Assembly: GCA_012295275.1 (NCBI GenBank)
Contig: CM022679.1
Coordinates: 4,774,001 to 4,838,000 of the forward strand
Length of the DNA stretch: 64,000 bases
Direction of reading: 5' to 3'
From: Chrysomallon squamiferum
Lineage: Eukaryota; Animalia; Mollusca
Shown here: piece after piece, positions 14,339 to 49,144 of the stretch
Layout: each line of letters opens with the position of its first letter
Numbering within the stretch: the first letter of the stretch is position 1
Made by a program: the position numbers and the translations under genes
Notes under the pieces: model-generated
Database searches by the model: none
The model's input: only the letters and a program-made list of their open reading frames with translations
Told to the model about the DNA's origin: nothing

Positions 14339-16355
14339 CATCATTATCTTCATCATCATCATCATCATCATCATCATTATCATTATTATTTTATGACTGT
14401 TTCATTATGATATTGTTATTATTTATTTCCAATTCATTTTTTAATTTTTCTTCTTCTTCACCCACAGGTCTTGGGTTCTGCTTTGTGTACATTCCATCCC
14501 ATGTCATGAGTGGGCTGTACTTTGACAAACACAGAAGTCTGGCCACTGGTCTAGCCACAGCAGGGTCAGGTCTGGGCAGCAGTGTCATGCCAATGATCAT
14601 TTCATACCTGATAGAGAAATACAACTGGAAGGGCTCACTGTTGATAATGACAGGTCTGTGCCTAAACATGATAGTATTCGGAGCCCTTCTCAAGCCCCTG
14701 CCAGGAAGCCTGAAAGATGAGAATGTAAACACGATGAAAGAAGAAGAAGAAAGAAGTGAAGTCAGGCCAGATGTTGAAGCAGACGTATGCAGAAGTGAAC
14801 AGCAAAACATCACTCAGTGATAAATCAGATTATGTTCACTCAGATTATGGTAATGACTGTTGTGGAGATTCGGTGATGCAGAAAGAACAAAAATGTGTTA
14901 CTCACAACGACAGACTGGATTATGCAGATGAAGGTCAGGTGCTGATGAGTCGTGAACAGTCGGAACATTCTCCGATCTGTAGTCCTGTGACAGAAACTTC
15001 GCCTGTCAGAGATTCCCAGACTGTCAGGACACAGGACGGCAAACTAACAACCAACATGAAACTTCACAGACTCTTCTTAATTTTCTACGATTTCAAATTC
15101 GACGTGTTTTTCATCAACAATATTTTGTGGAACACGGCAATATTCATGGTCTTGGCGTTTGCACCCGAATTCTTTCTGACCAGACATCTAGACAAAATGG
15201 ATGGCGCTACCATGGTAACCTTAGCAGGCTTTGGTTCATTTCTGGGCTCCATCTGTGGAGGCTTTGTTGGAAACTTTGTTTGGGTGAATCGTCTCGTGTT
15301 GTTTGCGGTCTGCTGCCTGTTTCTTGGGGTGCCGCCCATAGTTTTACCTTTCATCGAGTCTGATTACTCGCTCTACGTTGCCTTGATGTTCGTCTTTGGG
15401 TTTGTTTTCGGAATGGTGCTTGGTCTGCTGGTCATCATCACTTCGGATCTCCTCGGTCCTGAGCGTATTGGAGATGGACTGGGCTTCCTCATGTTTTCTA
15501 ATGGAATCGGATCTTTCATTGGCCCCGTGTTGGCTGGTTTGTAGTCATAGATGGTCTAAGGTTTATAGTAAAAATAAAAAAAGTTGTTGTTAAGATTATT
15601 TTTTTTTTCTTCTTTTACAAGTTTATGCCGGTTTTTTTAATGGTTTATTATCAGTGATTTTCATTTTTTTTCAAGGAATTAATTTTGTATTAAAAACAGT
15701 GCACAAAAAACTAATGTTTATGACTTTATCAGAATGTTTTTAAAATAAAGTTGCATACATCACATCTTTTCACTCATTCTAACTACCATTTGATGTTGGC
15801 ATTGTTAATTCATTTTGCATATTAATACATTATTCATGGTTATATTGGAATTAAAACGTTTCCAGAAACGGTGCACCTTTTGCTTATATATTTTATTCAA
15901 GAACATATCTGCATATGTAAAGTATAAATAAAATATATTTTTAAAATTAAAATTCCAGTTTATTCAAGCTATTGAAATTAACAGTCTTTGAATTCCTCAT
16001 CTTCATTTTAATGAAACCATGATAATCATTGACAATCATTTGAAGTAACTGAGACATATTTTAACAAAACCAGTGAATGTTTTCATAAAATATGTTTCAA
16101 CTACTTTAAATTATTGTATCGTATCCCTGTTTATACACATTTAAATGTTTTCTTAACAAAAGTTACAGCTGACTGTTTGCTATTGTAGGATTCCTGCGAG
16201 GAGTAACTGGAAACTATGACCTGGTGATGGTCATTTCTGGACTTGTCTGTATAATCTCAGCACTTCTGATGATGGCAATTCCCTTACAGGCCAGGCTGAT
16301 TTGTCACAGATCAAGAATTTCCAGCAAAGATTCAGGAATTGACATTGACAGTTGA
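12630..16355 (+). CDS. Monocarboxylate transporter family (SLC16/MFS) protein, 4 coding exons, one frameshift in exon 3
   Basis: Exons 12630-12822, 13618-13761, 14468-15536, 16189-16355, all GT-AG and phase-compatible; MCT motif YFDKHRSLATGLATAGSGLG, hydrophobic TM segments around a large central loop; reading frame switches between 14738 and 14817. Confidence 0.9.
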
Positions 16356-23940: not shown

Positions 23941-24904
23941 TCATCTATTCTGAAATATGAAATAATTAGAAATAAAATTAATTTTGGTTCTTAATAATAG
24001 TCATTGCATTACACTTGAAATTAAAATATTAAGTGAAACACTGTTCAAATAAATTTCTTAAAAGCAGTTTTTATAAAAAAAGTGAATAATAATAATTACA
24101 ACAGAAATAACTGATAATAACATGATTTAAAAAAAAAGAGTAACAATAATGATAACAAAAATAATATATGATCATACACATACATAAACTCACATAAACA
24201 CAAAACAAATGCACCCACATACATAAAAAAACCAAATGCATACACGCTTTGACACATTCATGTACTTATGTGCATGTATAAATATATACGTAGACACATA
24301 GAAACAGACACACACACACACACACACACATTCTCTTGGATGGTGCAATATAGCTGCTACTAAATATTCCACATAAAGATAAGACTTACCAGTCTCCATG
24401 TGATGACTTCAATCCATTCCTTCATATCCTGTTCTGAAGATGCATACATGTAAAATGTCCTCCAGTCAAACACCAGCCTAACACAAACAGAAACAACAAT
24501 AACACACAGGTCCATGTATTCACATAAAATAAACAGTAACACACAGGTCCATGTATTCACATAAAATAAACAACAGTAACACACAGGTCCATGTATTCAC
24601 ATAAAATAAACAGTAACACACAGGTCCATGTATTCACATAAAACAAACAGTAACACACAGGTTCATGTATTCACATAAAATAAACAGTATGACACAGGTC
24701 CATGTATTCACATAAAACAAACAGTAACACACAGGTCCATGTATTCACATAAAATAAACAAATAGTAATACACAGGTCCATGTATTCACATAAAATAAAC
24801 AACAGTAACTCACAGGTCCATGTATTCACATAAAATAAACAACAGTAACTCACAGGTCCATGTATTCACATAAAATAAACAACACTAACACACAGGTCCA
24901 TGTA

Positions 24905-24940
<36 letters not shown>

Positions 24941-25488
24941 AATAAAAAAAAAATAAAATAAAATAAAATAAAATAAAATAAAATAAAATAAAATAAAATA
25001 AAATAAATATATAAATGAAAAAATAACTAATAATAAAAAATAAATGTATAAACAAATAAGTAAAGAAATAAAGAAAGAATGAAAGAAAGAAAAATGAAGG
25101 AGAACAAGAAAAAAGAAAAGGATAATTGTCAGAGTTACCCCTTCATAAAATGAGAATCGATGTTTGTTAATATAACAATGAAAACGACATTGAGAGGAAA
25201 ACAAAAGATACTAATACGACACACAGTTGTGTGGTGCTCACCTGAACAGATATGGTTTGTCTTTCTTTGAGAAATCTTGAGAACACTCCCTGCAGTCGTT
25301 CAGGTTCAAAACCCGCACTGGAGACTTGTCCGTTTTTTCTTTGAAGTACTTCAGTTCGTTTTTTTGTAGAACGAACCATCGTGTTTTCCAGTTCTGAAAC
25401 AACAGCAGCTAAACTTTCAGTGAAGAAGAAAGATGAAAGAATTTATATTTTTAAACAAAATGTTTTATAAAATTTGTAAGTTTAAAAA

Positions 25489-25659: not shown

Positions 25660-28600
25660 ATATACTTTTTTCTCTCTCTCTTTTTCTTCTCTTTTTGTAA
25701 CACTGTAGTTCAGGTAAAATACTGAAAGAAAAATGTCATGATCTGGTCTGTCCAGGACACAATAACCAGAATGACTGAAGCAGCTATTTATTTCTAATCC
25801 CACAGAGTAAAACATGCTTTTAACACAACAAACACATTAAATTAAAATCTTAATTAAAAATACTCACTGGTCTGTATTCTGATAATTTTTGTTTGTAACT
25901 TTATGTTTACAGATATATACAAACATATACATACATAGACAAAATATTATTTCCATTTTCTATTACATAAATAATAATCATAAAATCTGATGTATAATGA
26001 AAGAAATTAAAATATACAGCAACTCTTTGTTACTTATAATTATCTACAATGTATCTTAAATGATTTAATCTGAATGTCACTCTTACACATGCAAGTGAAA
26101 TTCAATAAATACAGTTACAGTTAAGCAATGTTATAAGGTATGAAATATTAAGGAATATTAAACAGTCACATATGTAGCACTGCATGCAAAATCAATGGGC
26201 AAGCAAGATCTGGATGCACTAGTATGAAATAGTATGGAGGAATATGTACATCTGTGTGTGGTATGTTATGTATGTATGTATGTGTATATGTTCATATGTG
26301 TATTGTATGTATATGTGTCTGTTCACATCTGTGTGTGTATTTATGTCTGTGTGTCTGTATGTCATGTACTTAACTGAGTTGTTAGCATATGTATGCTATA
26401 TTGAGGATATTATTCTCTTAATTGTTAATATTACATATGTATATCAACCATACAATAACAACACAATATATCTAATTTAACAATTCTTTTAGGTGTCAGG
26501 AATTTCAGTTGAAATGATTTAAATACATTTTATATATATATATATATATATATACTGTACACCAAGAATCACCAAAAAACTTTAAAAAAATTAATAGGTT
26601 TAAAAAGACTTGTTATCAGCATTGGTTTGTTAAGTTTTAAATTTCAGACAAAAACAGTAAAGTGAAAATAAAACAAAATTATTATTAAATAGAAAATAAA
26701 ACATAAAAATATTATTTTTAACCTTAAGATTTAAAAAAAAAAATTATATATAAATAATTATCTATTCACAAATATACTTGTATCCAATATACCATCAGAC
26801 TTATCAACAAGGCAATTAGAAAAATTATTTTCTAGGAATTTTAAAATGAAAAGGATGGTTGAAACATGCATAAAAATGAAATTATATGTTTACTGCATAC
26901 CAAATCCAGCTATTAAAAAAAAAAAAAAAAAAAAAATAGTTGTTGAAGGGAGCAGAATAAAATAATAAATATACTTCATGCAAGATATTATTGAATGCAT
27001 GCTGGAATAAAATTTTAAAAAAAGGAAATAAAATAATGCATATACAAAAGACAGCAGAAGAAAATATTGTATGTTATAATGACAAAAGTAGTCACCACAT
27101 CTAGCCGCACAAACTGTTTAAATTATTATTATTTTTCTTAGAACCGCACGCAATAAGGGATGTTTCTGGAGATTTTCAGTGTCAGTTACCTTAATAAAAC
27201 GACCCTCTTTGGTCAAAAAACCTTCTTTAGAATTTATCTGAAAGGAAAATAACAGGTATAATATTAATCAGTTATTAGACAGATGTCATACCTTGCACCT
27301 ATCTCCCAGTTTTGTCAAAAAGCCTTCCTTTGAATTGATCTGCAAATAAAAACAAATTCCAAAATTCCTTTTGGAACACAACAGTAATATAAATTACACA
27401 ATATGAATACAGCCTTTTTTAGGACATTCATTTTTTAAATATATTAATTTTAAAACATTTATTTTTTTTAAATAATTTAGAATTTGTTGATTTTTACAAT
27501 ACGAAAATTAAAAGATATATAAATATTATAATTATACCATATAATATCAATGGAATTTTACTTTCTGCAAAATAAAATCTATGTATAAATATGAAACTGT
27601 ACATTAAATGTATTCCAGTTAGTGTTTATCAAGGAAAAAAAACCAGAGAGAGCCACAATAATTTTGTCATGGTACTGGCACAAAGGCAAATGTAGAATAT
27701 CTATAAACACAAGCATATAAAAAGTATATATGCTTAGTATTAACATACTTTGCTTATAATAAAGAATAAGAATAATGAAGCAAGCTGACATCAATTCCTG
27801 GACAACAATAACAACTAAAATGTCAGCCTGAACGGTAAGAATTAAATGCTACTACAGCTTCAATTGTTACTGCTACAACAACATGGCAACAGATGCAGGT
27901 GATACTGTAAGGACCACTATTTTACCACTGGAAGTCAGATTGCTGTCATTTCTGAAGCATCTACTAGCAAACTACTGTTACCATGGTTACTGGTGCTGCT
28001 ATTACTGCAACTATTATTATTACTCCAATTCTACTAGTATTACATTACTGCTTCTACCATTACCACTTCTTCAGTTACATAAAATATTACTATTCCTACC
28101 ACTTTAACTGCTACAACTGCTGTAACCTTAACTGTTGCTTTAAACTGTTACTTACCACTGCTACTACTATCTCACTTCTATAATTATTACTACTAATGCC
28201 ACCACTACCTAACAACTTCTGATAATATTATTATTACTTTTACTACTGTTACTGTTATTGCGGCCGCTACTTTTAACATTACCATTATTCCTACCATCAT
28301 CATTACTACCACTACTACTACTTCTATTACTACAGCTTCTACTGTAATCTTCCTTCTCTTCCTTCTGCTACTACTACTACTACTACTACAACTATTATGA
28401 CTTCTACTACTTGTTTACTATCATTCTCAATCTAGAACTGACAAAGACAAAAGAGTTATCTTACAGAAAAGTCTGAGGTAATGTGACCAACTTCAGCTGT
28501 GCTAAGTTCCGCATGTATTGTGACATCTTCATACAAATCTGGTTCAGCAATGTCTCTCGGATATGGTCGACAGAGCAGAACAAGTTGTCCTGATTGTTAA

Positions 28601-30885
28601 AACAATAGAAAAAAATTAAAAAATTTAAATAAATAAAAGAGATTAAAAGGAAAACTAAAGAAATAAAATTTGTATCAAATAAATAAATAAAAGAGATTAA
28701 AAGAAAAACTAAATAAATAAATTTGTATCAAATAAATAAATAAATAAATAAATGAGAATAAAAGAAATAATATTTAAACAAATGAATTTGTATTAAATAA
28801 AGAAATAAAGAAAGAGATTAAAAGATAAGATATATTTAAACAAAGATATTTTTAGCAAATAAATAAATAAAATAACACATTAAAAGATCAAATAAAATAA
28901 AATAAAATATCTATCAATCCAAACACAAAATCTACAAAGTTTTTTCTTTCTATATTTATAAACCTATTTTGAATATTTCACAACACCAGATCAAACATGG
29001 CAACTTTGTATATTAATTTAAGTGTTACAATACTAGAATAAAAACTTATAAAAGTTTACAAAAAAAAAAAAAAAAATAAAATAAAATAAAATAAAAAAAA
29101 AAAGTAAAAAAAAGGGTAAAGCAATTAATAAAATAAAACAAACATGACTTTATTTTTACAATGCCTCTGATAATTCCTGATTTCCTGGAAACAGTGAGCT
29201 CACCTGACTCTCCTCCTATGAGAGGTTTGTTACTGAAGTGGGTAAGCAGGTCTTGCAGAGTTTTGAAACTTCCGTGACCAAACTGAAAATCGCTTCCTGT
29301 CCACCGGACGTTGAAATGTTTAACTGACTTGTCACATCTGTAAGTAAATAGTTCAACATTGAACTCTGACTGTACTTGGATTACTATACATCACAAAACA
29401 CAACATACATACATACACACTTGCTTACACAAACACACACTCACACACAGAAATATTTACATACTTGCCCACCTCTAACGTTAAAGGACTAGAATTTAAT
29501 TTGTCTGTCCTCTAACAAGAACTATATTCATTGCCTTACTGTAACATTTAAATTATTTCAATTATCTGCCCTCTGATAATTCTCTAACAAGAACTATATT
29601 CACTGCTTATACCATAACATTTAAATAATTTAATTCATCTGCCTGACGAGAACTGTATTCACTGCCTATACTGTAATATTTTAAATCATTTAACTTACAT
29701 GCCCTCTAAAAAAAAAACTGAACTCAATGCTTATACTGCAGTATTTAAATAATTTAACTAGTATACTGTCTTTCAAGAACTAAATTCATTGCCTAACTGT
29801 CGTATGCAAGACACTTCCAATTCCAAAATGAATTAAAAACATACCATAGATATGTTGATTAACAATAATAATATCAAAACCGTGATTTTAATCAATATAT
29901 TTTACATTTTAGCATCATGATGTTTAGCCTCAATCAGGTTTTATTTTGTTGAAATTTTCTAATTTAAAACAAGAAGACTCACTTGACAGACAAGGCATAC
30001 TCCGACTGTTCTCCTGATTTTGAACTTGGTCGCAGTAAGTAAGTACCGTCTGTACCGTTCTGCAGCAGCATGCTCTCTGCAGTGTGCCGGTTCAGGTTTG
30101 GGTGAAAAAAACTGAAAATTAAATTTGTTAAAATATGAAATTTTTTTAAACATTAAAACATGTTGATGCTGTATGAAATATTTCTATGGTATTATCAATT
30201 CAGTTGTTATAGCTTAGATATGGATAATTAAATTTCTGGTTTTTCAAATGATTGTGAAGAAGGATTAAGTAAACCGTTATAAAAAAAAAAATTAAAAATT
30301 CGGGTACGATTAGGTTTAAGATAAAGAAGGTTAAGTAAAATAAAAAATAATTATTAAATAAAGAAATTAAAAAATACAGATTTATTTTCAAAATTAAAAT
30401 CAACTGATATAAACATAATACAGGTATGAAAATTTCATTAAAGTTAACATTTTAAATACCTTTTTATTTATATCCAAAAATCTTGAATAATAATCTGCAT
30501 GGTATCTATGTAAAATGTGTTTTGGATGTTTGTAGCATATGAGTACATGTATATTAAAAATGAATACTTATGTGGGCATATGTAATGTATTTATATGGTA
30601 TGTCTGTCTAGTATGTGCAAGTGGTATGTGTGAAATTTGGTATAATATGTGGGGTTTCACATGCATTCATGCACCAAAAGGCTCACCGATACCTGTTTTT
30701 CCTCTGGGACTACTAATCTTCACTGAAACGTTACTTACAAACATTGTCTATCAACATAAAAAAAAAAATGTAAAAATATTTTTGGTTGATTTTTATTGGT
30801 GTTGTTCAAAGATTTACTTTCAATGGTAACTGCAATCTGATACTTACAAAAGATTTTCAATATCTTCAAGGCAAGGTCCCACCAT
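23941..30885 (-). CDS. DAPP1: DAPP1/Bam32-like dual adaptor for phosphotyrosine and 3-phosphoinositides (SH2 + PH)
   Basis: Minus-strand exons 30885-30848 (MVGPCLEDIENL), 30111-29983 (FFHPNLNRHTAESMLLQNGTDGTYLLRPS), 29337-29204 (SVKHFNV...HFSNKPLIGGES), 28589-28465 (PYPRDIAEPDLYEDV), 27339-27292 or 27237-27190 (INSKEGFLTK..), ~25393-25243 (NWKTRWFVLQKNELKYF), ~24477-24390 (FDWRTFYMYASSEQDMKEWI), 23949-23941 (NR*). Colinear with DAPP1 as recalled (WYHGNLTRHAAE, PYPRKVEEPSIYESV, KEGYLTKQGGLVKTWKTRWF). Confidence 0.9.
24497..24905. repeat. ~36-39 bp minisatellite (aacacacaggtccatgtattcacataaaataaacagt), about 11 copies, intronic in DAPP1-like gene
   Basis: Direct reading of tandem units. Confidence 0.95.
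27190..27237 (-). CDS. DAPP1: DAPP1-like PH beta1/loop exon variant B (INSKEGFLTKEGRFIK)
   Basis: 48 nt, phase 0/0, acceptor ttttcctttcag, donor gtaact. Confidence 0.85.
27292..27339 (-). CDS. DAPP1: DAPP1-like PH beta1/loop exon variant A (INSKEGFLTKLGDRCK)
   Basis: 48 nt, phase 0/0, acceptor tttttatttgcag, donor gtatga. Confidence 0.85.
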
Positions 30886-32498
30886 TCTTTTCCATTTCTA
30901 GATCACTAATACAGGTATCTTTTCTCCTACACAAGAAATATATAAAAACATACATACATACATACATATACACACACACATATATATATTATATATATAT
31001 ATGGATGGATGGATGGATATATATATGTATGATGTATGGATAGTTGGATGGATGGATGGATGGATGGATGGATGGATGTATAATTATAATGTTGATATTG
31101 GTGATGATGATAATTATGGTTATTATTACTCGTGGTGGTGGTATTATTATCGTGATGTCTCTTTACAATTCAAATTTATAAACATATTTTTTTCTTATAT
31201 ATTACACACAGAAATGCTAACATATGAATACATATGATATGCTCAAAAGAATTTAATGCAAATATACCAATACACATCCATACACAAAATTTAATTTATG
31301 AATTGGGACAGCTTCATGGTTATTTGTATTGATGCAAATGAGTGAATAGTTAAATTTTATAATTCATGAAATTAAACATAACATTTAATATTTATAATCA
31401 TGTAATATTTGCTTTTATTAAGATGAATGAGTATGTGTAGGCTTCATTTCAAGTATTCACAAACAAACATATACACACCCACATATGCAGAAAGAAATGT
31501 GCGCACAGACCACACACACAAGCAATATACATTAAACATACAATTATATCAAAATAACCAATATCTAAAGTAATCAATACACATAATAAACTGTAACTTT
31601 TACTCACATTTATTCAATATTTACTTGATATATCCATGAACAAACATATTTTCATAAAGAATACATATTTTGTACATGAATGCACTCAAGTTTCAAGGAA
31701 GTCATTTTAAAAGGATTAAGAAAAATAATTTGATCTATATGTATTTAGTAAGTGATGTTGAATACCAAACAACCTGGAACTGATAGAAATGGGAAATCTG
31801 GCTTTGAAGTGATTGATCAATATATAATTTGACAGCACCTCAAGCAATCAATCCTTATAACATGTATCACTGATACTTCAGTTAAGAAGCAGGATCATTA
31901 ATTATAAAGCATTTATAGAAATTTTCATCAGTAAAAGATTATACTTGTTAATTACATTATTAATAAATTAATTTATTATCATAAAATTTATCTGATTATT
32001 TATTATCATTATAATTATTATTATTTTCTATTATCAGTATTATTACCTTCATTAATACATTAAAAAACTTAGGTTAAAAAACATTTAATAATTTGATACC
32101 AGGTTTAATAAGATTGTTTTATAAATGCATACTATACTGTTAAATACTCAGATCATTTTGTTCAAAACAGCAATAATTTGTTTAATTATATATATATATA
32201 TATATATAGTACAAGTGTTTTCTGTTTTTTTTAAAACTTCTCTATGTTCTTTCTAATTAGTTTTTGATGACACAACTAGAATGAAGTAATAATCTGAATA
32301 TAACACCTATTTACTTATTTACCTTTAGGCTAATCATCAGTCTAGTACAAACTAATTACTTGTTTGTATGACAAATGGCAACTTCAAATACAATGAGTCT
32401 TCAACAAACAGCCTAAAACCTATTTTTATACTTTTTACAAACAATTATCTTATAAATATTCAGGTATCAAGGTGTTTTTTTTATGTTATTCTTGTGAA

Positions 32499-34265: not shown

Positions 34266-34577
34266 TCATCTTCTAACACCCTTTCTTCTTCCCTTTCGAA
34301 TTCTCCTATGTGACCTTCCTCTCCTACGTTTCTTCCGACTCCTTGATCGGGTTTTTCGCCTTTTTCTTGATCTAGATTTTGATCTGTGTCTAGATTTAGA
34401 CCTTTTACGTTTTTTTCCATGATGTCTTTTGTGTCGTTTGGCCTCTTCTATGACCACGGATGGCGATACGGATCGAGAGTGGTTTCCGGTGTTGGGTTCG
34501 GAATCTGATTTACTTCCGGATACAGATGGACTCTCAGATACCGGTGAAGCAGATCTGGAACTTCTAGCACTCTGCAT
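34266..34577 (-). CDS. Intronless protamine-like sperm nuclear basic protein (Ser/acidic N-terminal half, Arg/Lys/Ser-rich C-terminal half; PL-III/pre-protamine-like)
   Basis: 103-aa ORF with good start context (caaaATG), C-terminal KRKRSKSRHRSKSRSRKRRKTRSRSRKKRRRGRSHRR, non-microsatellite codon usage, histone stem-loop downstream, TATA upstream. Confidence 0.8.
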   Translation of the reverse strand: MQSARSSRSASPVSESPSVSGSKSDSEPNTGNHSRSVSPSVVIEEAKRHKRHHGKKRKRSKSRHRSKSRSRKRRKTRSRSRKKRRRGRSHRRIRKGRRKGVRR

Positions 34578-35914: not shown

Positions 35915-35950
35915 ACGTGTCATAGTGTCGAATGAAAAAAAGCGTTTTCT

Positions 35951-36523
35951 ATGATGCCGGGTTCTAAGGCATCTAGATCCCGGTCGGGCACTAGATCTAA
36001 ATCTAGATCTAGATCAAGGTCCCGATCCCAGTCGAAATCTGGGTCTTTAACACCCTCTGATCAAGAAGCGAGTAGCGAGGGCCAGGACATAAAGTTGAGA
36101 CCTAGTGGTGTGCCCAGCAAAACATCGTCAATGGTGATGAAGGTTGTAGATGCAATTAATAACATCCGTGACGAACAGGGAACATCCGCGCAGGCCATCC
36201 GCAAATACATCGCATCGACGACACCAATTCCTGCTTCCCAGTTGAAAATTCAGATCAGGAAAGCTTTGGCTGAAGGCGTTGAAGAAGGTGTACTTGTCAG
36301 ACCTAAAGGATCAAAGGCCACAGGTAGCAACGGACGATTTAGGGTAAACAATAACAAGGCTTGCCGGAAAGCCTGCATACCACGATGTCAACCAAAACCA
36401 AAAACATGTCGTCGCAGAAAGCCTAAATGCAAGAAGAAGAAGAAGAGGCGTTGCAGGAAAAAGCGAAAGAATAGATGCAAGAAGAAAAAACGACGATGTA
36501 GGAAGAAGAAAAAACGATGCTAA
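35951..36523 (+). CDS. Intronless histone H1-related protamine-like protein (PL-I type): SR-rich N-tail, H1/H5 winged-helix domain, Cys/Arg/Lys-rich C-tail
   Basis: 190 aa; globular motif VVDAINNIRDEQGTSAQAIRKYI...IRKALAEGVEEGVLVRPKGSKATGSNGRFRV matches the linker-histone fold; (SR)n N-terminus; histone stem-loop downstream. Confidence 0.92.
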   Translation: MMPGSKASRSRSGTRSKSRSRSRSRSQSKSGSLTPSDQEASSEGQDIKLRPSGVPSKTSSMVMKVVDAINNIRDEQGTSAQAIRKYIASTTPIPASQLKIQIRKALAEGVEEGVLVRPKGSKATGSNGRFRVNNNKACRKACIPRCQPKPKTCRRRKPKCKKKKKRRCRKKRKNRCKKKKRRCRKKKKRC

Positions 36524-38315: not shown

Positions 38316-38352
38316 TGCGCATGCGCGAATAATGTAAACACCAATATGGCTG
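38316..38352 (+). promoter_or_regulatory. NRF1-type motif TGCGCATGCGC (38316-38326) and YY1-like AATATGGC over the start codon
   Basis: Consensus matches immediately upstream of the BTB gene ATG (housekeeping-type promoter). Confidence 0.55.
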
Positions 38353-41300
38353 CTGCCGAAGAAAGTTCCTACTATGGAACCTGGAGAGTAAGTTATTTTT
38401 CATTTGTACTTACTGTGTCTCCTTATTGTTACTTATTTATAATGCAGCTGCAGCTGAATTATACATGTCCTTTACATTTCTTTTAGATTGTTGAATGTGT
38501 GTCATTAGCAGGAACCGTAGAAACAACAGGAATTGAAGGGTAAGTCATGGTCGAAGGACTGTTTCATTTTGTTATAATGTTATTATTGTCAAGTTAGCAT
38601 TGAACTAAGCAACGTAATTCATTATTAGAAAGAGAATATTAACCAAAATACTTCTTTTTGTATTGATCCTGAATACAACAGTCTTTTAATGATAACAGTG
38701 GTCACTGTGACTGTCCAATATTAAGCCGAAAATATTTTTTAATAAGTTAATAATTATTTATCTGTCTATAATTAAAAATAAATATAGAAAGAAATAAAGA
38801 AATAAAGAAGAAAAAATTATGCCTTTATACTTAAACATCCGTTGCACTGTTAAACTGGCTTAATTATTTGTAAACAAGTTTTTGTTGATTTGGTTTTTCA
38901 ACTTTTTGGGATGTTAAAATACGATGCACGCATACTTTCATATAACAGTACATCAGTTAAATGTATAGGATAATACAAAACATCTTTTCACTGTAGTCCA
39001 ATTTTTTAAAATAAATGAATAAAAATTATTATATTTATTAAAAAAATATAATAATAAAAAAATTAAAAAAACAAACAACCCAAAAACAAACAAAAAACAA
39101 AACATATATATATATATATCTCAGTAGTATAATAGACTTTGTAAACTAAATATCAATAATATATATAGAGTATGAATGGGAATAACTATAACTGATAACT
39201 AATGACTAGATATAATACTCGTCTATATGCATATAAATAAGCAAGAGAAATATCTGTTAATTAGTTTATCATTTCATCAAATAATTAGTATTAGGTGCAT
39301 AACCCCCACAAAAAACCCATGACAAATTCCCCCCCAAACAACAACAAGACGAGAAAAACACAACCCCCCCCATCAACACAGGTGGACATTAGGTTAATGA
39401 TTAAATGGTGAATTTTCATCAGAAATAATCCAATAATATTTTTTTTCATATTCAAAGCCATTATTAAAATCTGATATTATTGTCCTTTGACTTTGGAACA
39501 TGCACAGAAAGATATTATTAATTTTAAAGCAGGCATACAACAGTAATTACCAGTGTTTTTCCCCTTTTTTTAAAATTATTATCTTCATTATTTTCTAAAA
39601 GCTGCATTTACATAATCATAGGAAAACTGGTATTGTAAATTTTTGTTCTAATTACCAAAAAACTGACTGATTTAATTTATTGTTTGCTCTGTGTTTATAA
39701 TCAGAACTGAATTTCATCTTGATGAAAATGGCGATGTTTCCTGGAAGATTTCTGAAGACGCTGAGCCGATGCCGTTTTTCAACTGTGAAACATACGAGGT
39801 ATGAAAAAATGCTGTGCATTGTGCAGCTGAAACAGTTTTTTGTTTATTTACTGGGAAAAAAAAAGTATTTATTTTTAGTTGAAAAAACAAAACAAAACTA
39901 CTATCCCAACCTGTTTCAGAAAATTTTAATGTGTATGTAATAAATATATTTGTGTGTAACCGTATATTAATGTACATGTATGTGTGTATGATATGTAACA
40001 TACATGTATACATACAAGATGATAACACACACACACACACACATTATTTTTGCTGTAGTTGTATATTTAAAGCACTAGACATATCTGTTAATTTATGCTC
40101 ACTTACAGCATTTTATTAAATATTTTATTACACCAATGTTTGTGTTTAAAATACTGTTACTCACTACTACTCACTGGTTTGTTTTTTATTCTTCAAATAA
40201 TAAATATTAATTTTTCTCCCCCCAGGTTACACCTCGTGCCGGTACATCTCCAGCTGTTTTGAAGTTTATCTGGACGTACGAAGGGCACGTCATAGAGTTC
40301 AGAGTAAGTCACTCATAACTGTTTTATTTGTTATTTATTCAAGCAGACTGTGTAGTCATTTCACATGTTAAAAGAAAAGATTCTGCTTTCTGATCTTATT
40401 TAATGGCTCAGGGTGTGGGTGTGGGTGTGGGTGTGGGTATGGGTATGGGTCGGTGCGTGTGTGGGTGGGTGCATGTATGTGTGTGTGTGTTAATAAAGAT
40501 TCAGTTAATCTATATTTTAAGATGACAGGAGTAAGTAACTCAGATTACATGTAATATACTTCCTTGAAATTATTATTATTATTGATTTTTTTAAATATTT
40601 TGTTTCTTCTAGTAGTACAAATGAAAAGTTTCCAAAATAATGTTTTATTTATGTTTCTGTTTTTTTAGTCATGATACTGATTGCATTCTTTCTCCGTTCA
40701 AGTATTTGTTTTACTTTGATATAGACATCAGCCTTTGCTAACAATAAAGTATGACTGGTGATGTTTTCAGTCATTACACATTACATATAAATTTTCAGGT
40801 AGAAGTTGCAGATGACCTCATGTTGCTAACATATGAAAGGTGTTGTATGTTGCAGTGTCAGAAGGTAAGATTCATTTAAAAAATCATTGTGTGGCTATGA
40901 TTTGTTTGTCATTAAGTGCAGAATGTAGCACCTTTTTTGTAAGTGCTGTTGTGAAAGTAATCAGTGTCCTGAACATGGTTAATAAAATCCTAGTCTTTTT
41001 ACAAATAGTTTTTTTGTGATTAATTTTCTTTCCCCCTTTTTAAAAAGGCTATAAACCCAGATTAAATCTTGAAAAATCACCATGGGAATAAAATGTTTAT
41101 TTTCTGAAATACATCTGTTACAGCTTCCAATTATAATTAAATGATAAGCTTGAGCACATAATGTTTTCTTTGATTCTAACTTGAACTTTCATGTCAGATA
41201 ATTTTCAAAGTAAAGGAGTTCTCTTCTCACTGACTTGATCACTAATAAGTCAATCTCTGAACTGTCTTAACATAATATTGTTAATGTCAACAGATGAATA

Positions 41301-44187
41301 TCTATATCTATAGCTACATGTATCGCTCTATCTGTCTATCTATTTATATATATATGTGTGTGTGTGTGTGTGTATATATGTTATTACATTAATTAATTTC
41401 AGGTATCGTCAAATGGTCCAAAAGATGAGGTTCCATTTTCATTTCTTGGGGCTCTTGAAGAAGGGTACTTTTCAGATCTTGTAGTGAAAGCAGATTCTGG
41501 TAGAGAGGTAAAATTTTAATAATTATCTAACTTGAACTCGTTTTTTTTCCAAATGTGATAAGACCAGAGTATTTCTTGGCCATTAATACTAATGTTATGA
41601 ATGCACTGAGAAAATGTGAGAAAGGGTAGAATTTTAAATATAATTTCTGAGCTGGACTGTCGTCATATTCTTTTATTACCATGTTGAATGTCATCCAGTG
41701 TTGTGGGACATTTTAAGAAATATTTTGGTTTGACAGCTCAGATTTGCAATACCAAACTTATTTGGCCAGAGTTTGTCTTTTACCTGTTGGAAAAAGATTT
41801 TAAAATATTTGTTTCTGTTTTTTTCTTTATTTCTTCAAATGTTTCTAGAGAAGCCTGGCTAGTAGTGCCCCATTGTGAAAATAGAGAAAGGAATGTAAAA
41901 CCAAACTCATTATTTATAAATTTTTATAATTTCACTATATGATTCGTTGTACTTTTATGACCAGGGTAAAATCTAAGCCTGGGGTGTCAGCCTTCAATAA
42001 TATTGAAAAAAGGGCACTGAAAAGAAATACAAAAATAAAACAGGCTTAGAATATCATGTTTCAGAGAATTAAAAACCTTTGCACTAATCTGTCATCATCG
42101 TCATTCAGCTGAATTATGTTATGAGATGTTATTCTGTGTGAATTCATTATGATTCTTGGAGTTGAAACACTTTTTACACCTTAATCTTAAAGAGACTTTA
42201 TCACTGAAAGACAAGAAAATTGTATATTAGAATCACTTAAATACTCTCACAAAAGGAATCATTCATTTCACAAACCAGTCTTGAGATATCGCTTAATGAA
42301 ACCTCCTCCGATTTATTCTTACACACCAGCCCATTCCTGACATTCTTTGATTTTTTTTAAAAATTCAAAAATCTTTTTTTTTTTTTAATAAGTTCTAAGA
42401 TCATTTTTTTTTTTAATAATAACTTCAAAGATCTTTTTTATTTTAAAATTCAAAAATCTTTATTCTATTTTTTTTGTTTTTTTTTAAATTTTAAATTTTC
42501 AGTTTAAAGTACACTCAGTGATACTGCAGCTGAGTTGTGCTGAGATGGACTGGACTTCGAGCCCTCCCCCGCTGTCTGGACTGAAAGCAGACGTCCTGGA
42601 GGCGACGCTGCACTACCTGTACGCAGAGTGTCTGCCCCGGGGGATGTCGGAGGACACGGCCAGGGCGTGTATCAAGTCTGTGGGGAAGCTGCCGGGATTC
42701 GCCCGATTCTCCCAACTCTGTGATACGTTTCTGAAAAACGCTGCACTGAAACAACGTAAGTGAAAAACAGTCTGGGATATGTGAGTTAGTGATTGAAAAA
42801 CAGTCTGGGATTTGTGAATTAGTGATTGAAGAACAATCTGCAGGCTCACAGATTTGTGAATTACTGATAGAAGAACAATCTGCTGGCTTGCGGATTTTTG
42901 GAAATTAGTGATAAAACACAATTTAAATAATAATATAATGTTGTGACGTTGGCTCGAAAATTTTATATAACGATAAAATCTTGTGACTAGAATCGTATCG
43001 TGATAATTTTAGATGATAGTAAAATACTGTGACACTGGCAACGGTTTGAAAAGTATTCATAATCACACAATGGTGTGACCATTTTTTGTCTTGAAAATTG
43101 TCTGTAATAATAAAATGTTTTGACCACCGTGTTGAAATGTTTAGAATGAATAATAATTACATGTCATTTTGTTAATTAAAATTAAGAAAATTTAAAAAAG
43201 AAATGTATAAACTGTAATAATAATATTTAAGAATCATCAAACTATTTTGAAGTTTTTCATTTTTTTTTAAAAGGTTAGAAAGAAAAAAAAAATTCCAGAA
43301 AATGAAAAGCTGTTATCCATGAAAAAAAAAAAAAAAAAGTACCTAATAAGAACAAAATCAATTTAAAAAAGTCAAATTATTCAAAAACCAAGCATTTAAC
43401 TATTAAAAGCTTATAACAATAACAACAACAACAAGAAGAAAAAATAAAATGGTAAAATAATTCTGTAAAAGAAAAGAAAAAATAATCAAATATGTAAAAT
43501 AAGCAAACTTTTCCTTCGTCAGTCAGTGTGATCTTGATTTTGTTAGTGCACATTTTTAATACAAATTAACCTTGATAATTAAATGTAACAGTTACATTCT
43601 AACAAACTGTTTTTTTTTTCCTCAAAAACTTTTTGTTAATAACATTTTCTTTATTCCTACTGCAGAAATAATTAACTTAATAACTGACATGCATGGCTGT
43701 GCAGACAGAATTATTGAACTCTTTACTGTGAAGGGAGCTAACTCTGTCGACGGTCATTTTGCTGTTGACTGCAGTTTGGTTTCGAACCCAGCAAAACTGT
43801 GTTACGTGGTGAGACAGGCTCTGAGGGAAGCAGCTGTAGGTAGGTCATTAATAATTAATTTATGTTAATATTCTACTCTGATTGCTTAACTGATTTGTAA
43901 CAAAGACTGTAATAGGGTACAAATTTATGCATTAACTCTTCTGCTCTTTTAACTCGATAATGTTAATAGTTTGGTAATGTTAATAACTTTTTAATTTTGT
44001 ATTTCAGTGTTGATAATTAATTAAATATTATCCATATTGCTCATTAGTAATAAAATGATTTCAAACAGTAAATATTTTATGTTCCTGTTTTTATTATTAT
44101 TATTATTATTATTAATGTTGTTACTACCATTAATACTTGTATTATTATTATTATTATTATTAATGTTTTTATTACCATTAATGTTTA

Positions 44188-44259
<72 letters not shown>

Positions 44260-44294
44260 TGTTATTACCATTAATATTTGTATTATTATTGTTA

Positions 44295-44330
<36 letters not shown>

Positions 44331-47300
44331 TTTATTTCTCACAGCCTGTGCTAAGCTGTTAATTTTGTGTGACTTGTTTTCTAAGAGGAAGGGAGAATTG
44401 TCAAGAGAAGAGAGACATGAAATCATGAAATACGCCAAATCAAGGTTTGCTAAAAAAAAATAAAAACACATTAAAAAAAACCCCCAAAACACCTATTTAT
44501 GTTGATTTGGGTAACAGAAGACTATAAAAACTAAGAAATATGCCAAATCAATTTTTACTAAAATAATGCCATTTTTGTTATTAACAAAAGAGTTAAAATG
44601 AAAAGATCATAAAAAAAAATTACTTAAATGTACTTAATATATTTTACTAATCAAACTGTTGGAAAAGAATCAGATAAACCAAAAACAAGAACTTCGAGCA
44701 GTGAAGAAGAAGTGTGAATGAAAAATAGTTTTATTATTTTCAATTACTGAAGGTCAGATCTAGGCAAGACTGGAGTAATTTTCAGTTTTTGGTTACTACT
44801 TTTGTTTTCATTTAACCAATGCAATAGATTTTAGTTAATGGTTCACTTTCAGCTTTTATAACATACCAATGTGTGTATGTATGTTTTGTGTTAATATATA
44901 TGTATATTTATATATACACGTGTGTGTATACACAATTTTTGTTTTTGCTTCAGACTGCCAATCTTCATGAACCAGCTACACAGGTTTCTAGAAGTGTGTA
45001 AGGAACATGCTGACCAGCTGAGTGTGGCACAAAGAGAGGAGATAGCCAACTACCTAGTACCTGAGGTAAATTATGTACCTGCATGACAGGTAGAAATACA
45101 GGTGCGGGTCTGTTACAGGTTTTGAAATCAGTTGTGTGCTGAAGAAATCTAAGAGAATGTTGTGATTTCATGTTCTGCTAGATGTTGTAAAAGAATAAAA
45201 AAATAAAATTAAAAAGATGTTTAAAAATAGTCTTTATTCATTGACAGTCATATTAGAAAGGTATCAGAACTGGTTGTGAATATAGAAAAGAAAAGTGAAC
45301 TGATGTGTTCAGATGGGTTCAGTGAGTTTGTTTTGACAGAGAAGTGGAGTGAATTGTCTTCATTCTGTTTTAAACAAAAAAACCACTGACCTGTTTGTAT
45401 TTGTTAAACTCAGACTGGTAACTGTCTTCATATTGTTTATATTTAGTAACAATTTTTCTTTTGTTAAATGTTTCGTTTTGCCATTCTCTGTTGCAGCTTG
45501 TTGTTACACTGGAGATGATGTCTAAGTTTGCACAGGAGACGAAGGCAGCGTTGGAGCAGATTATTGCTGCCAGCAACGCTGCAGAGAAGTCAGAACGTGG
45601 AGACAAACACAAGAAAAGTCACATGGGCGATGTCCTCGGAAAGGCTCTGAAAAATGTAATCTTATTTTTTTTTGTATTATTATATTTTTTTTTAGATATG
45701 ATGGTTCATATTTAATAAAAAAAAATTAAAAAAAGCTTATTTTTACAACAAAAAAAAAAAAAAATCATCTTCAGAAGTTGCATTTTTTAATTTTACTTAT
45801 TTTTTAATTTAAAAGTTTATAAACATGTTTATAAATATTTAATATATTATTCGGTCTTATTACAAATCAATTGCATAAAGATTACATTTTTTTTTTAATA
45901 TATATATATATTAAAATTTATTCATAAAGTTGCTTAAAATGACTGAGTAATTACAAAATTTGGAAAACTTAATTGTATTCATGCACATTTCATTCAGGTT
46001 TTGTCAGTTAAAACATTCCTTTGTATTGAAGTTTCTTGTTAGAAAATAATCATATGTTTTTTAGTTTTTTTGGTATTTCATGAATAAGGATTCCATTCAA
46101 TTTTTAATAACATTAAAAAAAAAAAAATTTAAATGCTGATTTGTTTTTCAGTTTAAATTTCACCAAGATGCTGAATATAATGCCTTGCTTTCAGTTATTT
46201 AATACTTAAATCTGTGAAGTTACTGAAGAAAAATTATTTGTATTTCATAAAGGCGCTGCACATCAAAGAGTTGAAAAAACTCAAAAGTTTTCATGAGAGG
46301 ACAACGACAAGCTTCATGCATTTAATGCAGAAAAAGTAAGACTTGCAGTTTTATTTAGAATTATTTAAGTTTTCAGTTTTTAGGTACTAGAACATTATCT
46401 CAGTTAAAAAACTGAGTTAGTAGTTTTACATCTTTTTCGTGTTTTATGAATTTTACTGTTTTGTTAAAATGGTATTTTCTGAGTGTTGGAATTTTAGGAA
46501 TATGGTATTTTCTGAGTTTTGCTATTTTAGTTTACAATTTTAGCAAGTGTTAACATTTCCATCCAAACTCTTACAAATGTATGAAAAAACATTCTCATAT
46601 ATATATATATCTCAGGCATACCAATTACACACCTATCTCAATTAAGAATATAATCTGTGTACATTAAACACACAATTTTATATATATGTGTGTGTGTAGA
46701 GTTTAACAGTGGATATCTTTTCCACAGAGATCATTTTTGTATGATGTCACAAAGGGAAAAGGTTCGAGCCACATCTAAAAACCTAGAACAGTTAGCTGAC
46801 GAGGTAACCATTTAAAATCAGTTTTATTTTATATTTTGTATTAGTTTTTTTTTAGGATTATCTGTGTAATGAGGATGTTGTGTTAGTGAGTGTGCTTGTT
46901 TGTAATGTGCTGTGTTTCAGGATAAATCCTGCTGTAGGTTTTTCAAATTATTTTCATCTCTTGCCTATGTCAAATGATTAGTGTGTGTGTGTGTGTGTGT
47001 GTGTTTAAATGTATATATCACACCATTGTAATTTATCTATCTGCCTGCCTGTCTCTGTCTTACTGTCTGTCTATACAGGTATATATATATATATATATAC
47101 AAAGATAGACTGTTAGAGAGATAGATATAGATAGAATATATTTGTGTGACATATACATTTATATAGACTAGGAGAAAAGCATACAAACGGTTATTGCTTC
47201 TAATAAATAATTTTTGCAAACATATGAGTAAAACTTTGTCAATGCTCATCTGAAATGTCTGAACCAAATATTTATACCAAGACAGAAAAAGATATCATTT

Positions 47301-49144
47301 TTATTTTTTTTATAATTTTATTTTTTGTTTTTGCTGTTGGTAAGGTAAGTATAATGTTTATTTTGGCTAAAAGGAGAGAGTTTTATTTTCTTAGTCAAAA
47401 ATCTTCTGGGCTTTTTCTGTTTGAATATTTTCTGTTGATAATGTAAGTATAATGTTTATTTTGACTAAAAGGAGAGTTTTTATCCTGTGATAAATTGTTT
47501 AATTTTTTAAATGTTTTTGCTATTGGTAAGATAAGTATGTTTATTTTGGCTAAAAGGAGAGAGTTTTTTTTTAATTTCTGTTAAAATTGTTTGTCTTCAG
47601 GTTCCTCATTTTCTCACGAGGCTGAAGGAACTGATGTCAGCTCTTGACGAGAAGGTGACATGGAGAGAATGGAAATATCTCTTTAAACTCGGCACTTCCA
47701 AAGTTGTAAGTCATTTTGTACAGTTTACTGACAACAGAGGATTCAGATCTTAACGAAATGAATCACGGAATAATAGTTAGCTAGCAGTTGCAGGTCACGT
47801 ATCAATGTACTGCCATCTTATAAAATCCATGTCAAGGTCAAACAGTATTTCTCTTTAAAAAAAAACATTTTTTTTTTTTACTTTTTGATTTAACTGTATA
47901 AATTATAAAGTTACATCTTATTAAAATGCAAAATGACACAAAAAATAGGGAAAATAGGGAGAAAAAAGGGAAAAGTGTTTGTAAATTTACTTTAATTAAT
48001 AAACATCATTAATTGTATTACTATTCATCTGGACTGATTTATTTGGTAAGTGTAAGGAGAGGGAGACATTACAAAAGCTAAATTCCATGAATATAAGAGG
48101 AATATTGACAGGTATGAGAATGAGAATATATTCATAATTATTTTAAATTCTGGACAGAAAGGGAAAAAACAAGCTGAAATACATTTTACATAGTTTTAAA
48201 TTAGTATTTGATTTGTGTATTGTGGTGTCCAGTGTTTGCTAAACATATTTTACATACATTTAAATTTAGTATTTGATTTGTTTGTGGTGTCCAGTATTTG
48301 CTAAACGACTGTTTGTTTGTGTCAGGCGTGGGGTTTAGGCAAAGTGCTGGCTAACAAGTCGACAGTGCAGTCGCTGATTGACCAGGTGTGTGACATGGCA
48401 AACAGAGAACAGTTCACAATGTCGCTGGCCTCCCTTGGACTCGTCTCGAAAGAACCAAGTCAGGAGTCTCCAGCAAACTGCGCCAAGTCAATGTCACAGC
48501 CAGCTTCTACGAAATATGCACAGGTACAGAAAACTGTTCAATTTAAACATGCAAAGGGTTGTTTATATCCATCAGGATGTTCTCCATCTTCCAGGGTTTC
48601 ATCTGTTTGTGTGATCTCCCACATACTAGGGGTGGGTGTGTCTATCAGGGTGATTCTATCTGCTAGGGTGTGGTGGTCTGCAACTGCCAGGGCTTTTAAT
48701 ATCAAGGTCCAGGTTGTATATATTCCAGGGTGATCTCTCTTTACAAGGGGTATATCTATCAGTGTTCTTGATCTGGCAGTATGATCTGCATTTAACATGG
48801 GTACATCTACCAAGGTGGTCTCCATTTATTAGTTTGAGTCTGTTAGGATAATCTGTATCTACCAGGGGTTTGTCTTTTAGGGTAATTAAAAAATGACTGT
48901 ATAAAGGGTGACCCGGTGACTTCCAGCCACAAGAGAAATATCTGTCAGGATAAATCTCCATCTACCAGTGTCTCCTGTATCAGCTTCCTCTCAGACTTGA
49001 TAGTAAAAACTTTTAATATGTATGTTGTATCGTAATGTGAAAAACAATGTAACGTATGTATAGTTAATACAAAATGTTTATTTAGATGTTTATTTTTAGT
49101 TAACATCAAACACTATGTATGTGTAACTAATACATAATGGTTGT

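Follow-up and report, generated by a model that had tools for sequence, protein, structure and literature searches.

Two very probably either-or exons recode the beta1-beta2 loop of the PH domain in a snail DAPP1/Bam32 orthologue

Can a single gene supply its PH domain with two versions of the beta1-beta2 loop by splicing, and what would the choice between them do? This question is raised by a locus on the minus strand of the window, the 64,000-nucleotide stretch of Chrysomallon squamiferum contig CM022679.1 analysed here, where the original prediction placed a pair of duplicated, mutually exclusive exons in a DAPP1 gene and proposed that they act as a phosphoinositide-specificity switch. The gene model and the elements surrounding the pair are as follows (window coordinates, in the order of transcription).

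30848..30926, minus strand: first coding exon of the gene model
29983..30111, minus strand: SH2 exon (gene model)
29204..29337, minus strand: SH2 exon (gene model)
28465..28589, minus strand: upstream constitutive exon, encoding the SH2 end and a linker with a conserved tyrosine motif; covered and joined by RNA contigs
27292..27339, minus strand: alternative exon A, 48 nt, phase 0, encoding the end of the linker, beta1 and the beta1-beta2 loop (loop LGDRCK)
27238..27291, minus strand: GT-AG intron between A and B, 54 nt
27263..27278, minus strand: predicted branch-point-like motifs CTAAT, CTGAT and TTAAT
27190..27237, minus strand: alternative exon B, 48 nt, phase 0 (loop EGRFIK)
25242..25393, minus strand: downstream constitutive exon, encoding PH domain beta2 to beta6
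24390..24477, minus strand: PH domain exon for beta7 and the C-terminal helix (gene model)
23941..23949, minus strand: last coding bases and stop codon (gene model); the ending resembles that of the homologous protein P0001

With either A or B chosen, this nine-exon model yields a 240-aa SH2-PH protein which, judged by its sequence, is a gastropod DAPP1/Bam32 orthologue. The best sequence match in the PDB is human DAPP1 (1fao, E 4.4e-26); the same entry is the top solved structure for the downstream exon (E 1.4e-11), which also matches proteins named DAPP1-like in the protein collection. The modelled isoforms are 84-85% identical to P0001 and P0003, in which Pfam finds SH2 followed by PH, and 68-69% identical to the abalone protein. 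In a midpoint-rooted tree of 25 rows, the window protein groups with P0001 (support 100/99) within the gastropods, among proteins named DAPP1. The likeness to human DAPP1/Bam32 (1fao) and TAPP1 (1eaz) covers the SH2 and PH layout, an equal loop length, and the conserved binding Lys and Arg. We also note an ATG that lies 10 nt ahead of the modelled DAPP1 start, in another frame, and opens a 9-codon overlapping frame (30895-30866, minus strand), possibly an upstream ORF.

Elsewhere in the window lies a divergent pair of frames resembling sperm basic proteins: a 103-aa Ser/Arg-rich, protamine-like frame at 34266-34577 on the minus strand (no Pfam match), and a linker histone H1 frame at 35936-36523 on the plus strand (Pfam E 5.7e-17), whose N-terminus is rich in Arg and Ser and whose protamine-like tail is rich in Cys, Lys and Arg. 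At 14470-15544 (plus strand), the two halves of an MFS transporter lie in different, overlapping frames, each matching Pfam MFS_1. A stop stands at 14818-14820, and no strong intron is evident between the halves; a short intron, a frameshift or an assembly error are possible causes of the break. Finally, a multi-exon gene occupies 38347-48524 (plus strand) and presumably encodes a BTB-like domain, recognised by eye near 42503-42757.

Exons A and B are adjacent, homologous, equal in length and phase, and furnished with their own splice sites, each being preceded by AG and followed by GT. The predicted coordinates, 54-nt spacing, flanks and peptides were all confirmed, A encoding INSKEGFLTK-LGDRCK and B INSKEGFLTK-EGRFIK. 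Retention of the intron between them would bring in a stop after one codon; the remaining seven introns of the gene model span 440-1796 nt. The two exons are identical at 32 of 48 nt and were recovered as a direct repeat by the repeat search; elsewhere in the window, over both strands, the closest 48-mer matches at 27 of 48 nt. Their differences are unevenly spread: 11 fall in the 15 nt of codons 11-15, while codons 1-10 carry five, every one of them silent (6.0 of the 30 sites are silent; neutral chance about 3e-4). The ten identical residues of the original prediction were thus found, its "many synonymous changes" amount to five differences in 10 codons, and the purifying selection that it proposed for beta1 in both copies is supported by these five silent changes out of five.

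Both exons also lie together in one 2095-nt contig of run X5, which derives from another haplotype and another study and is probably genomic DNA; the pair is therefore not an artefact of the assembly. X5 and the window agree throughout 27100-27398 and show 26 clear differences in the following 1066 nt (nominal p 7e-4), a weak hint of constraint in data from a single haplotype pair, which are non-independent. The best explanation of the arrangement is a tandem duplication of the exon that encodes beta1 and the beta1-beta2 loop, which left the gene with two versions of it.

RNA evidence for how the two copies are used comes from assembled contigs of runs X1, X2 and X3 (three of the four RNA runs, all from one study). 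X1 and X3 each contributed one long contig that passes from the upstream exon through A to the downstream exon, and X2 contributed two contigs of 99 nt, one with B and one with A, in each of which the exon is flanked by 24 nt of upstream exon and a 27-nt tail. In the B contig of X2 this tail is the start of the downstream exon, and that of the A contig has no placement on exon B; the loose ends of A in X1 and X3, and of B in X2, likewise continue into the first letters of the downstream exon. The two junctions foreseen for the upstream exon, 28465->27339 and 28465->27237, were found in these contigs, at depths of 14.7 (X1), 14.2 (X3) and 9.38 (X2) for A and 13.6 (X2) for B. Exon A hence appears in all three runs, as the sole form in two, and B in one of the three. 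Each exon was found in mRNA without the other and joined to the same neighbours on both sides, the B form being represented here by one 99-nt contig whose flanks of 24 and 27 letters are shorter than the 31 letters of the bridging rule and which is flagged 'between: not known'. The junction 27292->27237, expected to be absent, is not among the 8 joints listed, nor is any other A-B joint or a double-skip joint, a gap that is no proof of absence in assembled contigs, which lose rare variants. Taken together with an isoform pair in a second species (below), the contigs with A or B support either-or use, and we consider either-or splicing of the pair very likely. Differences between samples in the use of A and B are only suggestive, because contig assembly can drop the minor form. 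In X2, a two-allele site in the upstream exon has depths of 6.2 and 17.9, and the A/B choice may be allele-specific.

What would keep the two exons from being joined? The original prediction pointed to ctaat and ctgat motifs close to the donor of A. Within the 54-nt intron, YTRAY adenines indeed lie at +17 (CTAAT) and +24 (CTGAT) from that donor, with an additional one at +28 (TTAAT). The predicted branch point would be too close to the A donor, which would block A-B co-inclusion. A further obstacle would be that U1 binding the A donor and U2 binding the B branch site vie for one short stretch, given the footprint of SF3b. Published minima provide a scale: donor-to-branch distances under 50 nt are too short in humans (PMC5740500, PMC7969005), and the limits in flies are about 35 nt from donor to branch and 15 nt from branch to acceptor (PMC5762160). 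No consensus motif in the 54-nt intron satisfies both fly limits. Flies splice introns of 40-50 nt (PMC5762160), and C. elegans introns down to about 40 nt (PMC4165533); the YTRAY motif is common in AT-rich DNA, and in 4 of the gene's 8 introns the last 60 nt before the acceptor contain none. Steric interference is the likely cause of exclusion.

Other ways of enforcing a choice fared less well. Co-inclusion (256 aa) and double skipping (224 aa) both stay in frame, so that decay of frameshifted messages cannot enforce exclusion and is ruled out; nor does the protein level forbid anything, because the co-inclusion product remains in frame and is left with a B-type domain. Incompatibility between U2- and U12-type sites is ruled out as well, the donors GTATGA, GTAACT and GTAAGA being ordinary U2-type GT sites and none of the donors of the gene fitting the U12 consensus. 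In the repeat search, of low power for this purpose, the inverted repeats among the 25 longest of 167 repeats were all of low complexity, so that no docking-selector pairing was found.

The same event is already present in automatic RefSeq gene models from another species. P0001 (three RefSeq accessions, loop EGRYFK) and P0003 (one accession, loop LGNYCK) form an isoform pair from a single locus (XP_041363514/6/7 and XP_041363515), orthologous to the gene in the window and with the same two loop classes, and differ at 3 of 243 residues (156, 158 and 160), all of them in the loop. Window A pairs with P0003, and window B with P0001. A thus groups with A and B with B across the two species, and the duplication therefore predates their split and both copies have been kept, through 15% protein divergence. 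Compared with the window, the relative has Asn-Tyr for Asp-Arg in A and Tyr-Phe for Phe-Ile in B. We infer that the pair comes from Gigantopelta aegis, a peltospirid vent snail, because accessions on both sides of P0001 carry that name (PMC9956218, PMC9570181). For scale only, G. aegis and the other dated peltospirid split 116 Ma ago (71-184; PMC7895826).

We then looked for the pair more widely. Among 158 homologues with a readable loop, out of 164 proteins fetched, there are 12,031 pairs with differing loops, and only between P0001 and P0003 do the flanks agree throughout (0 differences in 120 residues). These 158 proteins, which include the other molluscs sampled, hence show no second lineage with the exon pair. 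Unannotated copies in other genomes are possible, because the survey covered proteins. A search of 50% representatives added 49 more distant proteins with a readable loop, and the doubled motif is in none of them. Metagenome contigs searched with a 28-protein alignment gave at least 80 loci, with no identity above 52% and no close snail locus among the matches listed, and a search for short fragments bearing the A loop gave no candidate.

Within one oyster accession series of DAPP1-like proteins (P0067, P0071, P0027, P0131 and P0132), models P0131 and P0132 skip exactly this 16-residue unit, in frame, a skip that would remove beta1 and the binding Lys. Because they omit exactly this unit, they suggest that the exon boundaries are older than the duplication. 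P0067, P0071 and P0027 were rejected as alternative-exon forms, their flanks differing as well as their loops, and look like paralogues or species differences. In P0113 and P0035, the beta1-beta2 loop has three extra residues, consistent with an alternative donor at the exon end.

Where does the swapped segment lie? The structure model of P0001 (mean pLDDT 77; 85-92 over the PH domain) places beta1 at 149-156 and beta2 at 163-171, with the residues that differ between the isoforms at 156, 158 and 160, and superimposes on DAPP1 bound to inositol tetrakisphosphate with an rmsd of 0.6 over 95 columns. The model, this overlay and the alignment to 1fao agree with the proposal that the exon encodes beta1 and the beta1-beta2 loop. 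Furthermore, the 1fao alignment puts the Asp/Arg site, as had been proposed, opposite the second Gly of human KQGGLVK, which is the site of TAPP1 Ala203. Ala203 clashes with the 5-phosphate, and Gly at that position admits PIP3 (PMC4746654). Human DAPP1 has one loop form in its solved domain, with Gly at the 5-phosphate site, whereas this permissive Gly is absent from both snail isoforms.

Not all loop differences have been conserved alike. The charge reversal that was claimed for this site, Asp against Arg, is present in the window and does not hold as a conserved feature, the relative having Asn and Arg; net loop charge is equal in A and B of both species, because B gains Glu along with Arg. 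The two species have in common the differences Leu/Glu, Asp-Asn/Arg and Cys/Ile-Phe. In the 51 distinct loops found among homologues, the Asp/Arg site (loop position 3) holds 15 residue types, with Gly in 14 loops, and position 4 holds 9 types and differs between the species in A as well as in B. Arg and Asp each occur at the site in homologues for which only one loop form was found. Position 5 is Phe in 39 of the loops, Val in 5, Ile in 4 and Cys in 1, and position 1 is Glu in 2. The Cys versus Ile/Phe difference falls in the two-residue loop tip, which is fully hydrophobic in B of both species (Phe-Ile; Tyr-Phe) and partly loses its hydrophobicity in A (Arg-Cys here, Tyr-Cys in the relative). 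DAPP1 is among the PH domains whose loop tip carries two hydrophobic residues, a pair that constitutes the insertion motif of FAPP1, although such a pair does not by itself guarantee membrane binding (PMC4704004).

Thus, it seems somewhat more probable than all other outcomes taken together that the swap tunes the strength of membrane recruitment without flipping head-group specificity, a reading drawn from sequence comparison that we rate above a head-group switch, redundancy, a role for the Cys or a partner, and artefact. Docking would be stronger for B, whose Arg is combined with a hydrophobic Phe-Ile or Tyr-Phe tip, than for A, which has Asp or Asn and a Cys in the tip. Both isoforms would probably retain a preference for PI(3,4)P2, because the permissive Gly is missing from both.

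The main competitor is the switch that was originally proposed, which we regard as unlikely, if worth serious attention. The Arg of B would reach the 5-phosphate and admit PI(3,4,5)P3, and the Asp or Asn of A would exclude it and keep the domain on PI(3,4)P2; splicing toggling between DAPP1-like and TAPP1-like behaviour would be an equally doubtful consequence. In its favour, the site is the one at which Ala-to-Gly opens TAPP1 to PIP3, and for an oomycete PH domain with Lys in this place modelling suggested that the residue helps to bind PIP3 (PMC4746654); Arg is retained in B of both species, and the cytohesin microexon offers a precedent (PMC6314551). However, the oomycete loop is six residues longer, and the snail loop is as short as that of TAPP1, where even Ala clashes (PMC4746654). 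The Asn/Arg of the relative, the unchanged net charge, the variability of the site, and the presence of Arg and of Asp in homologues with one loop form also argue against it. Accordingly graded, it is improbable, though conceivable, that the vent-type snail lineage evolved, independently of the cytohesins, a DAPP1 splice switch between reading PI(3,4)P2 alone and reading PIP3 as well; that such a switch is governed by tissue or condition, with A alone in two samples and B slightly above A in the third, is a similarly tentative proposal.

Near-neutral redundancy, in which both exons are used, beta1 is kept and the loop drifts so that the isoforms are alike, would fit the high variability of loop positions 3 and 4 and the change of position 4 between the species in both exons. 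We consider it quite unlikely, since an unneeded duplicate is expected to decay and both copies outlasted the divergence of the two species; moreover, the rare Cys of A and Glu of B, as well as the Arg of B, are common to both. A role outside lipid binding, with the Cys of A as a redox or acylation site or the loop binding a protein partner, is less probable still: A has kept the Cys in both species, and it is found in 1 of 51 distinct loops, but in the matched DAPP1 structure this loop forms part of the wall of the lipid pocket. That there is no alternative pair at all, by assembly artefact, a dead copy or routine co-inclusion, is extremely improbable given the X5 contig with both exons, one exon per RNA form and both forms in the second species, even if B here is one short contig and co-inclusion keeps the frame.

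The exon swap, like the proposed exclusion mechanism, can be set beside known systems. As in the cytohesins, whose microexon is located in this loop, the splice change falls in the beta1-beta2 loop, whereas a change of length by a Gly microexon was not found here. The diglycine/triglycine microexon of cytohesins 1-3 likewise alters the ligand-binding region of the PH domain by splicing, but it is a cassette of 3 nt that alters the length of the loop, and its PIP3/PI(4,5)P2 switch has been measured (PMC6314551); the snail case is a duplicated 48-nt exon of DAPP1 that swaps residues at constant loop length and whose effect on lipid binding is a prediction. The loop-length change in P0113 and P0035 is nearer to the cytohesin case than the A/B swap is. 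With regard to mechanism, exons 2 and 3 of alpha-tropomyosin are a cited case of sterically enforced homologous mutually exclusive exons, the kind proposed for A and B. OGDH 4a/4b is likewise a tandem duplicate of 3n length, with a donor-to-branch distance below the steric threshold as is predicted for A and B, and differs in its distant branch points and longer intron, whereas the A/B intron itself is 54 nt and its branch point is predicted (PMC7969005). C. elegans let-2, egl-15 and gly-5 belong to the same steric class of exon pairs (PMC4165533), and duplicated either-or exons with a branch point that is too close account for 57 of 629 human clusters (PMC5740500).

In the literature searched, outside which most subscription papers lie, we found no description of mutually exclusive exons in DAPP1, of mutually exclusive exons that give PH isoforms for phosphoinositide binding, or of alternative splicing of Bam32 in invertebrates or molluscs. 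Either-or exons and splice control of the lipid preference of PH domains are each known, and their combination in DAPP1 was not found in that literature.

As PH domains, the two isoforms constitute a natural pair, with differences at three or four residues of the loop and both kept over the 15% divergence, and they offer a cheap and clean way to separate the part of the beta1-beta2 loop in head-group choice from its part in membrane insertion. If affinity alone differs, the pair is a well-made, lineage-restricted example of a common kind of splicing. If specificity differs, splice-controlled phosphoinositide reading would have arisen a second time, independently, and the pair would offer a handle on PI3K signalling in molluscs, whose DAPP1 is absent as a subject from the literature searched; a switch, if true, would let one locus supply these snails with both DAPP1-like and TAPP1-like readers of PI3K signalling.
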